64,000 nt of DNA from Escherichia coli (GTDB taxonomy: Bacteria; Pseudomonadota; Gammaproteobacteria; Enterobacterales; Enterobacteriaceae), in the NCBI RefSeq assembly GCF_030013205.1, contig NZ_CP122648.1, one strand, 5' to 3'. Made by a program: the position numbers. This document shows, piece by piece, positions 40,101 to 43,100 of the stretch. Positions within the stretch are counted from its first letter, which is position 1; each line of letters opens with the position of its first letter.

Positions 40101-43100
40101 GACCGCCTGTGGTTTCCGATGCCGCTCCTGATTTCGTGAAAACCGTTACCGCGGCGATGCTCGCCGGGCTTGGTGATGCCCTCCCCGTTTCGGCGCTGCC
40201 GCCAGACGGCACCTGGCCGATGGGCACCACGCGCTGGGAAAAACGCAATATCGCCGAAGAGATCCCCATCTGGAAAGAGGAACTCTGTACCCAATGTAAC
40301 CACTGCGTCGCCGCTTGCCCACACTCAGCTATTCGCGCAAAAGTGGTACCGCCTGAAGCGATGGAAAACGCCCCTGCCAGCCTGCATTCGCTGGATGTGA
40401 AATCGCGTGATATGCGCGGGCAGAAATATGTCTTGCAGGTGGCACCGGAAGATTGCACCGGTTGTAACCTGTGCGTCGAAGTTTGCCCGGCGAAAGACCG
40501 TCAGAATCCAGAGATTAAAGCCATCAATATGATGTCGCGGCTGGAACATGTCGAAGAAGAGAAAATCAATTACGATTTCTTCCTCAACCTGCCAGAAATC
40601 GACCGTAGCAAACTGGAACGTATTGATATTCGTACATCGCAGCTGATTACACCGCTGTTTGAATATTCCGGTGCTTGCTCCGGTTGTGGCGAGACGCCGT
40701 ATATTAAATTGCTGACTCAGCTCTATGGCGACCGGATGTTGATCGCTAACGCCACCGGCTGTTCTTCAATTTATGGCGGTAACCTGCCCTCTACACCGTA
40801 TACCACCGATACCAACGGTCGTGGACCGGCATGGGCGAACTCGCTGTTTGAAGATAACGCCGAATTTGGCCTTGGTTTCCGCCTGACGGTCGATCAACAC
40901 CGTGTCCGCGTGCTGCATCTGCTGGATCAATTTGCCGATAAAATCCCGGCGGAATTACTAACTGCGTTGAAATCAGACGCCAAGCCAGAGGTTCGTCGTG
41001 AACAGGTTGCAGCTTTACGCCAGCAACTCAACGATGTTGCCGAAGCACATGAACTGCTACGTGACGCAGATGCACTGGTAGAAAAATCAATCTGGCTGAT
41101 TGGTGGCGACGGCTGGGCTTACGATATCGGCTTTGGCGGTCTGGATCATGTATTGAGTTTGACCGAAAACGTCAACATTCTGGTGCTGGATACGCAATGC
41201 TATTCCAATACCGGTGGTCAGGCGTCGAAAGCGACACCGCTGGGTGCAGTAACTAAGTTTGGCGAGCATGGCAAACGTAAAGCGCGTAAAGATCTTGGCG
41301 TCAGTATGATGATGTACGGTCATGTTTATGTGGCGCAGATTTCTCTCGGCGCGCAGCTCAACCAGACCGTGAAAGCGATTCAGGAAGCGGAAGCGTATCC
41401 GGGGCCATCGCTGATCATCGCTTATAGCCCCTGTGAAGAGCATGGTTACGATCTGTCACTCAGTCACGACCAGATGCGCCAACTCACTGCTACCGGCTTC
41501 TGGCCGCTATATCGCTTTGATCCGCGTCGTGCCGATGAAGGCAAACTGCCGCTGGCGCTGGATTCACGCCCGCCGTCAGAAGCACTGGAAGAAACGTTAC
41601 TTCACGAGCAGCGTTTCCGTCGTCTGAATTCGCAGCAGCCAGAAGTGGCAGAACAGTTATGGAAAGATGCTGCGGCTGATTTGCAAAAACGCTATGACTT
41701 CCTGGCACAAATGGCCGGAAAAGCGGAAAAAAGCAACACCGATTAAATGCTCTGGATAAGAATTATCCAATTCTAAAAAAAAGCCCGAACGACTGTTCGG
41801 GCTTGTCTCATTATTTGTTGGATAAACAGTAACAAGGGTCCAACAGAAAATAATCTTTGTGACAATAAAGGCATATAACCCGCGGGTAATGACTCCAACT
41901 TACTGATAGTGTTTTATGTTCAGATAATGCCCGATGACCTTGTCATGCAGCTCCACCGATTTTGAGAACGACAGTGACTTCCGTCCCAGCCTTGCCAGAT
42001 GTTGTCTCAGATTCAGGTTATGCCGCTCAATGCGCTGAGTATAACGCTTGCTGATAACGTGCAGCTTTCCCTTCAGGCGTGATTCATACAGCGGCCAGCC
42101 ATCCGTCATCCATACCACGACCTCAAAGGCCGACAGCAGGCTCAGAAGACGCTCCAGTGTGGCCAGAGTGCGTTCACCGAAGACGTGCGCCACAACCGTC
42201 CTCCGCATCCTGTCATACGCGTAAAACAGCCAGCGCTGACGTGATTTAGCACCGACGTAGCCCCACTGTTCGTCCATTTCAGCGCAGACAATCACATCAC
42301 TGCCCGGTTGTATGCGCGAGGTTACCGACTGCGGCCTGAGTTTTTTAAGTGGCGGAAAATCGTGTTGAGGCCAACGCCAATAATGCGTGCACTGGCGCGA
42401 CATCCGACGCCATTCATGGCCATATCAATGATTTTCTGGTGCGTACCGGGCTGAGAGGCGGCGTAAGTGAACTGTAGTTGCCATGTTTTACGGCAGTGAG
42501 AGCAGAGATAGCGCTGATGTCCGGCGGTGCTTTTGCCGTTACGCACCACCCCGTCAGTAGCTGAACAGGAGGGACAGCTGATAGAAACAGAAGCCACTGG
42601 AGCACCTCAAAAACACCATCATACACTAAATCAGTAAGTTGGCAGCATCACCTAACCCGCGAAGAATAACGCATCACTATTTAAATGTATAATTTTTATT
42701 TTGTATATGTCGCCAACAATATATTCACCAAACTTATCATCATTTCCGTAGAATTATTTGATTAAGGTTTTACTTAAGGCGTAACAAATGATATTTATCG
42801 GCTAACGGAACTTCTCCTTTAGGATGTTTTCACTCCCCAAAATGGGGATGAAAAGGCAAATAAAATAACTAAAGGATTTATTCAATGAAAAGCAAAGTAC
42901 TGGCATTTTTAATTCCTACCCTGCTCGCCGCAGGTGCTGCACATGCAGCCGAAGTTTATAATAAAGACGGCAACAAATTAGATCTGTATGGCAAAGTTGA
43001 TGGACTACATTATTTTTCTGATAATTCAGCGAAAGATGGCGACCAGAGCTATGCGCGTCTGGGTTTTAAAGGCGAAACCCAAATTAACGATCAACTCACT

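Follow-up and report, generated by a model that had tools for sequence, protein, structure and literature searches.

In the classical insertions of IS1 into gal and lac, a 768-bp insertion sequence (IS) flanked by a 9-bp target duplication physically uncouples a gene from its promoter, and IS1 is polar in both orientations. A comparable arrangement was analyzed here in a window of 64,000 nucleotides (the whole stretch of Escherichia coli DNA under study, from contig NZ_CP122648.1 of assembly GCF_030013205.1), in which a complete IS1 lies immediately upstream of micC, the gene for MicC, one of the classical porin-controlling small RNAs (sRNAs). The length of the element, the 9-bp duplication and the apparent uncoupling of gene from promoter recall the gal and lac cases, but the target is a trans-acting, Hfq-dependent sRNA instead of a protein-coding operon, and the duplication copies the start base, leaving the displaced promoter with its native +1. 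MicC has recently been linked to the fitness of extraintestinal pathogenic E. coli and to between-strain differences in OmpC. IS disruption of the promoter of a porin gene, that of OmpK36 (ompK36), is among the events recorded in PMC12086927.

IS1 can also create fusion promoters, in which a -35 element in the IS1 end is combined with a -10 element in the flanking DNA; examples are those of Prentki et al. 1986 (listed in PMC9330008), of blaTEM-6 and of acrEF. By sequence, the site in the left inverted repeat (IRL) that faces the neighboring gene ompN is of the same design here, whereas the equivalent site at the right inverted repeat (IRR), which faces micC, reads TATGCC and would leave the sRNA unrescued. 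At yhhZ, an IS1E copy lies downstream of host promoters that are co-oriented with insAB' and located just upstream of IRL, with no terminator between (Smith et al. 2025, PMC12428005). The same geometry is found at micC, but the upstream promoter is in this case an H-NS-silenced, stress-responsive sRNA promoter that was captured by the insertion itself. Classical IS1 hot spots lie in AT-rich regions and have G/C at the ends of the duplication. The micC start is similar, with a GC island beside an AT-rich region, but departs from the classical account in that no IHF consensus was found near the site and the likeness between target and IS1 terminus reaches only 5/6. Uncoupling of a gene from its promoter by IS1 is a known, standard kind of event, and the findings leave the current understanding of IS elements or sRNAs unchanged; what is new is that an sRNA is the target, that the insertion became fixed in a clade of veterinary pathogens and that the same few base pairs have been hit repeatedly. 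No earlier report of IS1 at micC was found in a literature search.

The IS1 insertion at the micC start

The IS1 occupies positions 41885..42652 on the minus strand, exactly 768 bp, and is flanked by perfect 9-bp direct repeats of TAACCCGCG at 41876-41884 and 42653-42661. Adjoining its right end is micC (41773..41879, minus strand). The Rfam model for MicC (RF00121) matches the minus strand from 41882 to 41767 over its full length (positions 1-123) with 107.8 bits against a gathering score of 90, and the gene is placed as in K-12, between nifJ/ydbK (nifJ, 38222-41746) and ompN (42885-44018), divergent from ompN. The curated K-12 gene (b4427) begins GTTATATGCC, and an RNA-seq-based table of K-12 transcription start sites (TSSs) gives that of micC as 1437121, the same base as the b4427 start (PMC7967276, supplementary table). 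Because both map to position 41879 of the window, this base was taken as +1. With this numbering, IS1 sits between -6 and -5 of micC, i.e. 5 bp upstream of +1, and the target duplication spans -5..+4. The left copy (41876..41884) corresponds to micC +4..-5 and is joined to the micC body, and the right copy (42653..42661) is a second -5..+4, joined to the native promoter and carrying a duplicate +1 at 42656. It is because the duplication covers these positions that the displaced promoter keeps its native start.

The micC body is intact and now abuts the IRR end of IS1. MicC is normally made as an RNA of ~109 nt from its own promoter. Both sequence features that mark a MicC are present, namely the 5'-terminal seed for pairing with the ompC leader, whose nucleotides 1-22 are identical to those of K-12 MicC, and a Rho-independent terminator of the Hfq-type module, with a stem at 41804..41781 followed by a T-tract (T8). 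Relative to K-12, the central stem-loop (41805-41857) carries substitutions and is of a length that differs by 5 nt, and one base of the terminator stem is changed; this micC/intergenic allele is found at ≥90% identity in only ~20% of genomes.

An active micC-lacZ fusion described by Dam et al. (2017) contains a 184-nt fragment whose promoter-proximal primer ends ...ATACGTTATTCTGCGCGG, i.e. at -1 (PMC5745476), and therefore micC transcription needs nothing beyond sequence upstream of +1. Among the -35/-10 pairs of the empty allele, only TATACA-17-TATTCT is well placed for the mapped TSS; it ends 6 nt before +1 and scores 6.45 bits with a rough sigma-70 matrix. This putative native promoter is now found at 42663..42691 on the minus strand (-35 TATACA at 42691..42686, -10 TATTCT at 42668..42663), beyond IS1 and 777 bp away.

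A preliminary description of this DNA had reported a complete 768-bp IS1 with insA and insB' on the micC strand, and a micC +1 at about 41879, inside the left repeat and 5 bp from the element. All of its coordinates proved correct, both transposase frames are open on the minus strand, and the K-12 gene start and TSS fall where it had placed +1. Its view that IS1 separates +1 from the -10 and -35 elements agrees with the activity of the fusion ending at -1 and with the present location of TATACA-17-TATTCT, and comparison with an IS1-free allele, which it had named as the way to the promoter position, left a single well-placed pair. It had also read the perfect repeats as the mark of a bona fide transposition and the displaced promoter as pointing into the insA end; the empty alleles of VCSW5 and EC556 indeed carry one repeat copy, and the displaced promoter with its duplicate +1 is co-oriented with insA.

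The element has the hallmarks of its family, including a length of ~768 bp, imperfect inverted repeats of ~23 bp beginning GGTRATG, insA and insB' in -1 frame relation, an A6C motif, a match to the transposase model and an 8-9 bp target duplication, present in two copies in the window and in one at the empty site. Its terminal inverted repeats are 23 nt each and 83% complementary, with IRR at 41885-41907 (starting GGTAATGACTCC and reading GGTAATGACTCCAACTTACTGAT from 41885) and IRL at 42630-42652 (the complement of GGTGATGCTGCCAACTTACTGAT, at 42652). An open insA frame of 91 amino acids (42597..42322, minus strand) is overlapped in the -1 frame by an open insB' frame of 167 amino acids (42403..41900, minus strand), and the motif AAAAAAC lies inside the overlap at 42346..42340 on the same strand. 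Consensus scans found a promoter-like site in IRL upstream of insA (CTGCCA-16-TATGAT, 42618..42645, minus strand), to which a function is ascribed from established IS1 biology. Against the NCBIfam model NF033558, the insB' product scored 148 bits (cutoff 100), and InsA alone scored 86 bits over model positions 1-81. The sequence shows ~93.5% identity to IS1A copies, and an identical IS1 copy in K_EC180 is annotated by RefSeq as an IS1 family transposase with programmed frameshift and no pseudogene flag. From its sequence the copy looks transposition-competent; non-consensus IS1 copies can be inactive in K-12 (PMC12428005).

Empty-site alleles and the IS1-bearing clade

Alleles without the insertion were found in other strains. 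VCSW5 shows 100% identity over a 395-nt empty-site query and has a single TAACCCGCG copy. In BLAST searches, the pig isolates EC556, EC571 and EC581 from Japan matched a 1,984-nt empty-site query as one uninterrupted piece at ~100% identity, and the fetched EC556 sequence, again with a single TAACCCGCG, differs at 2 of 7,984 flanking positions once IS1 and one repeat are removed. Because these empty-site sister alleles exist, the insertion was regarded as a genuine transposition. Of 5,426 complete E. coli genomes, 14 have the exact IS1/micC junction; without exception their hosts were pigs or wild boar, in Korea, France, Belgium and the Netherlands. Over 7.8 kb, no difference separates the window from K_EC180 (swine, Korea). 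W13-16 and P15-25 had been typed as O139:H1, sequence type 1 (ST1), in a study of an edema-disease clone of Shiga toxin-producing and enterotoxigenic E. coli (STEC/ETEC) (PMC8798679). ETEC6 matched the junction at 86% coverage only. JMF1 was dropped as a carrier, its match also covering 86% and the fetched region proving to be an unrelated IS1 junction next to bluR. IS1 matches numbered 11-23 places per chromosome in the IS1-bearing clade and differed in number between close relatives.

Judged from these alignments, the insertion goes back to the ancestor of a clade, known from two continents, and is not private to one strain, and it is evolutionarily young, being clade-wide yet missing from near-identical sisters. 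The preliminary description had called it probably recent, which holds on an evolutionary scale, given the near-identical empty sisters, but not in the sense of a strain-private event, given 14 genomes from four countries. This edema-disease-type clade appears to be a natural micC promoter knock-out, for which the near-isogenic empty-site sisters EC556, EC571 and EC581 would provide a natural experiment on MicC function in a veterinary pathogen.

The divergent partner of micC, ompN (plus strand), is a pseudogene in the window: a GAA>TAA change at 43941 (codon 43941-43943) creates E353* and removes the C-terminal 25 residues, and RefSeq flags the gene accordingly. The gene is intact in the empty-site strain EC556 and in the IS1-bearing strains W13-16, ETEC4075, ETEC6333, ETEC1701 and ETEC4068, so the IS1 insertion predates the ompN stop, which arose in a subclade. 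Two changes at the other end of micC were seen among these strains, an extra IS200C in or next to the terminator T-tract in ETEC4068 (683-1387 of the fetched region L014, equivalent to window ~41776-41781) and T8>T7 in the terminator tail in ETEC1701. In the unrelated strains LR778147 and GN25, an IS200-family transposase is annotated under the match to the micC region.

Transcription of micC, insA and ompN

We consider it quite probable, taking the explanation as a whole, that IS1 entered between micC -6 and -5 in the ancestor of a porcine O139:H1 ST1-type edema-disease/ETEC subclade of E. coli, uncoupling micC from its promoter, and that functional MicC was likely lost or strongly reduced as a result. 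Toward micC no fusion promoter with a -35 in the IS end and a -10 in the flank was found. The junction pair TTGGAG-17-TATGCC, considered as a hybrid IRR/micC promoter that might rescue MicC, scores only 2.1 bits, is without the invariant final T and gave no call in the consensus scan, and it was rejected. The next-best candidate, ATTACC-17-TATTGT (5.4 bits), has a predicted start at about +25 and would give a product without the seed.

Only two routes to MicC-containing RNA are left. Transcription could cross the entire IS1, beginning at the weak, InsA-repressed IRL promoter or at the displaced micC promoter, in which case the transcripts would have an extended 5' end and a more paired seed, or it could begin at a weak internal start, in which case the seed would be missing. 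A scan of the minus strand within IS1 found no intrinsic terminator, the only one being that of MicC itself, and K-12 lacZ operon fusions placed after IS1 are measurably transcribed (PMC12428005). One would therefore expect some read-through RNA that spans insA, insB' and micC and stops at the MicC terminator. Such RNA would include ~437 nt of insB' sequence after the insA stop, untranslated unless the rare -1 frameshift occurs, and its seed is predicted to be less accessible, with a mean unpaired probability of 0.41 as against 0.78 in free MicC. Strong, Rho-mediated polarity is a classical property of IS1, and InsA bound to IRL represses and obstructs transcription entering the element. Since no usable hybrid promoter is predicted and read-through would be of limited value, functional MicC is, on the sequence, probably lost or strongly reduced, which would relieve MicC-dependent repression of ompC.

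Several points weigh against this reading. We place the micC promoter elements from the K-12 TSS and a reporter fragment, not from mutagenesis, and we infer all RNA- and protein-level statements for the IS1-bearing strains, those on MicC and OmpC included. An insAB'-micC chimeric RNA is expected, from which RNase processing could release MicC-like species. Expression of micC is low in laboratory-grown K-12, where H-NS silences the gene, and any change in phenotype may therefore be slight. Finally, the micC body is undecayed in the mapped ST1 genomes, apart from the one T8>T7 tail change and the one 3' IS200C, which is compatible with either a young event or retained function.

Other explanations were weighed against the same evidence. 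IS elements can be misplaced in short-read assemblies, but an assembly artefact or chance resemblance has next to no probability here and was rejected: 14 complete genomes, sequenced independently of one another, share the identical junction, two of them (W13-16 and P15-25) with documented PacBio long reads, and the perfect 9-bp duplication has exactly one copy in the empty alleles. It is unlikely, though to a far smaller degree, that MicC is still made at a functional level as the 3' end of an insA-insB'-micC read-through RNA, driven by the displaced micC promoter, the IRL promoter or both, terminated at the MicC terminator and released by RNase E-type processing in a manner resembling that of sRNAs derived from 3' untranslated regions. 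Such a transcript would be favored by the common orientation of the displaced promoter, its +1, insA and micC, by the missing intrinsic minus-strand terminator within IS1, by the expression of a lacZ operon fusion after IS1 (PMC12428005) and by the perfect preservation of the micC body, seed and terminator. The seed is, however, the extreme 5' end of MicC, so processing exactly at 41879 would be needed, and within the longer RNA the seed is predicted to be about half as accessible. The ~437 nt of largely untranslated insB' RNA ahead of micC, together with the established Rho polarity of IS1, and the established repression and obstruction of incoming transcription by InsA at IRL also speak against it.

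The remaining alternative concerns ompN. A hybrid outward promoter-like site facing this gene lies at 42639..42667 on the plus strand, where TTGGCA in IRL is followed by AAGAAT in the flank after a 17-nt spacer made of 8 bp of the IS end and the 9-bp duplication. By sequence alone it is a putative fusion promoter; with 10.2 bits it is the best sigma-70-like site in the region by the same rough matrix (6.45 for the native micC promoter), and it is not present in the empty allele. The only listed K-12 TSS of ompN, 1437301, lies beyond micC and gives a 408-nt 5' untranslated region (UTR) antisense to the whole of micC (PMC7967276). As this TSS maps from the same table to 41705 on the plus strand, across micC, the long ompN 5'UTR is also interrupted by IS1. 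We hold it improbable that the main effect of the insertion was on ompN, such that IS1 broke an H-NS-silenced AT-rich region, its IRL -35 switched on a quiescent OmpN and a later nonsense mutation removed a costly porin. The strength of TTGGCA-17-AAGAAT in the filled allele only, the IS1 fusion promoters of the same design mentioned in PMC9330008 (Prentki 1986), the 30% GC content of the micC-ompN intergenic region, the ~6-fold repression of ompN by H-NS (PMC5745476) and the appearance of E353* after IS1 within the IS1-bearing clade are in keeping with such a course. Yet IS1 severs ompN from its only experimentally listed TSS, from which lower expression would be expected; the -10 AAGAAT is without the first T, and the -35 would be covered by InsA or InsAB' when these bind IRL. 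Neutral decay of a quiescent gene accounts equally well for a single nonsense mutation, and seven independent IS1 insertions within the ompN coding sequence of other strains indicate that the gene is dispensable.

On the upstream side, the displaced micC promoter reads into IRL and insA from its own start base, with no terminator between it and the co-oriented insA. Experiments in K-12 showed more insAB' transcripts and more transposition when transcription runs into IS1 from upstream, and less transposition when an rrnB terminator is placed ahead of the element (PMC12428005); Machida 1983, as cited there, is credited with the opposite effect of read-through, on cointegration. By analogy, it is mechanistically reasonable that the displaced promoter drives transposase expression from this copy. 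H-NS represses micC ~11-fold in K-12, and beta-lactams induce it (PMC5745476); the insertion would thus have placed an H-NS-silenced, beta-lactam/envelope-stress-responsive promoter before insA.

Recurrent IS1 insertion around the micC start

Searches for IS1 at this locus were run with both IS1 orientations, as a same-strand query only joins co-oriented pieces. An apparent orientation bias proved to be an artefact of the same-strand query, the flipped-IS1 query giving 18 more genomes with the opposite orientation. Mapping of the interval from the 3' end of nifJ to the ompN stop gave 19 independent sites of IS1 insertion; the IS1-bearing genomes H7, VG1046-3E9, EC09, LS992166 and 2406_w1 lie outside this mapping. 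Four independent events fall within -5..+6 of micC (window 41873-41884); both orientations are represented, and the duplications measure 8 or 9 bp. They are the co-oriented insertion of the ST1 clade (duplication -5..+4), an oppositely oriented one in AREA_505 and AREA_R505 (duplication ATAACCCG, -3..+5, junction mapped in AREA_505), another of opposite orientation in TUM13064 (duplication TATAACCCG, -3..+6) and an IS1A joined at micC +5 in HUM3355, in which the other side is rearranged with a second IS1 and a prophage. The four were counted as independent because IS1 isoform, orientation, duplication and host lineage differ. In HUM3355 (positions 4483-6047 of the fetched region L006), micC is followed by two tandem frameshifted IS1A copies and then by prophage head genes, and ompN and the intergenic region are missing from the locus, which suggests an IS1-mediated deletion or rearrangement.

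Four further independent insertions were mapped to the spacer between the micC -10 and -35 (ES6), to +39..+47 (LR9-2, to which MB64 and PD4 were assigned because their BLAST patterns are identical), to +45..+52 (E08) and to +57..+65 (GF31 and YZMc3-1). Altogether, IS1 was found in micC or its core promoter in 25 of the 5,426 complete genomes (0.46%). For four events in 12 bp, a permutation test corrected for scanning gave P = 0.006, and only 0.15 events per 12-bp window would be expected even if all ~64,000 chromosomal IS1 copies in the genome collection were independent. With 8 events in 145 bp, micC and its core promoter have ~9 times the IS1 density of the adjacent dispensable ompN coding sequence (7 in 1,134 bp; binomial P 8e-5).

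The site hit by IS1 forms a short GC island (CCCGCG) bordering the 30% GC region, a setting that fits the classical target preference of IS1. The IHF consensus (WATCARNNNNTTR) was not found near the site, even with one mismatch. The target preference of IS1 probably had as large a part in the event as selection, and these data do not separate it from selection for MicC loss. We give little credence to a stronger proposal, that capture of the micC start by IS1 was itself selected because it both removes MicC and wires a stress-inducible promoter with its native +1 to insA, with the IRL promoter of the ST1 copy waking OmpN and E353* following later. If it were true, loss of MicC would raise OmpC or alter envelope physiology in livestock- and antibiotic-exposed E. 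coli, and IS1 transposition from the micC-start copy would become stress-inducible.

With 25 of 5,426 genomes carrying IS1 there and four hits around the start, strain surveys of MicC/OmpC regulation should genotype the micC locus, which is also a convenient natural target for studies of IS1 site selection. The target sequence ATAACC agrees in 5 of 6 positions with the IS1 termini ATTACC/ATCACC, a likeness that may have to do with the hot spot, and the IRR/target junction (41875-41890) forms a near-perfect palindrome, ATAACCCGCGG / CCGCGGGTAAT.

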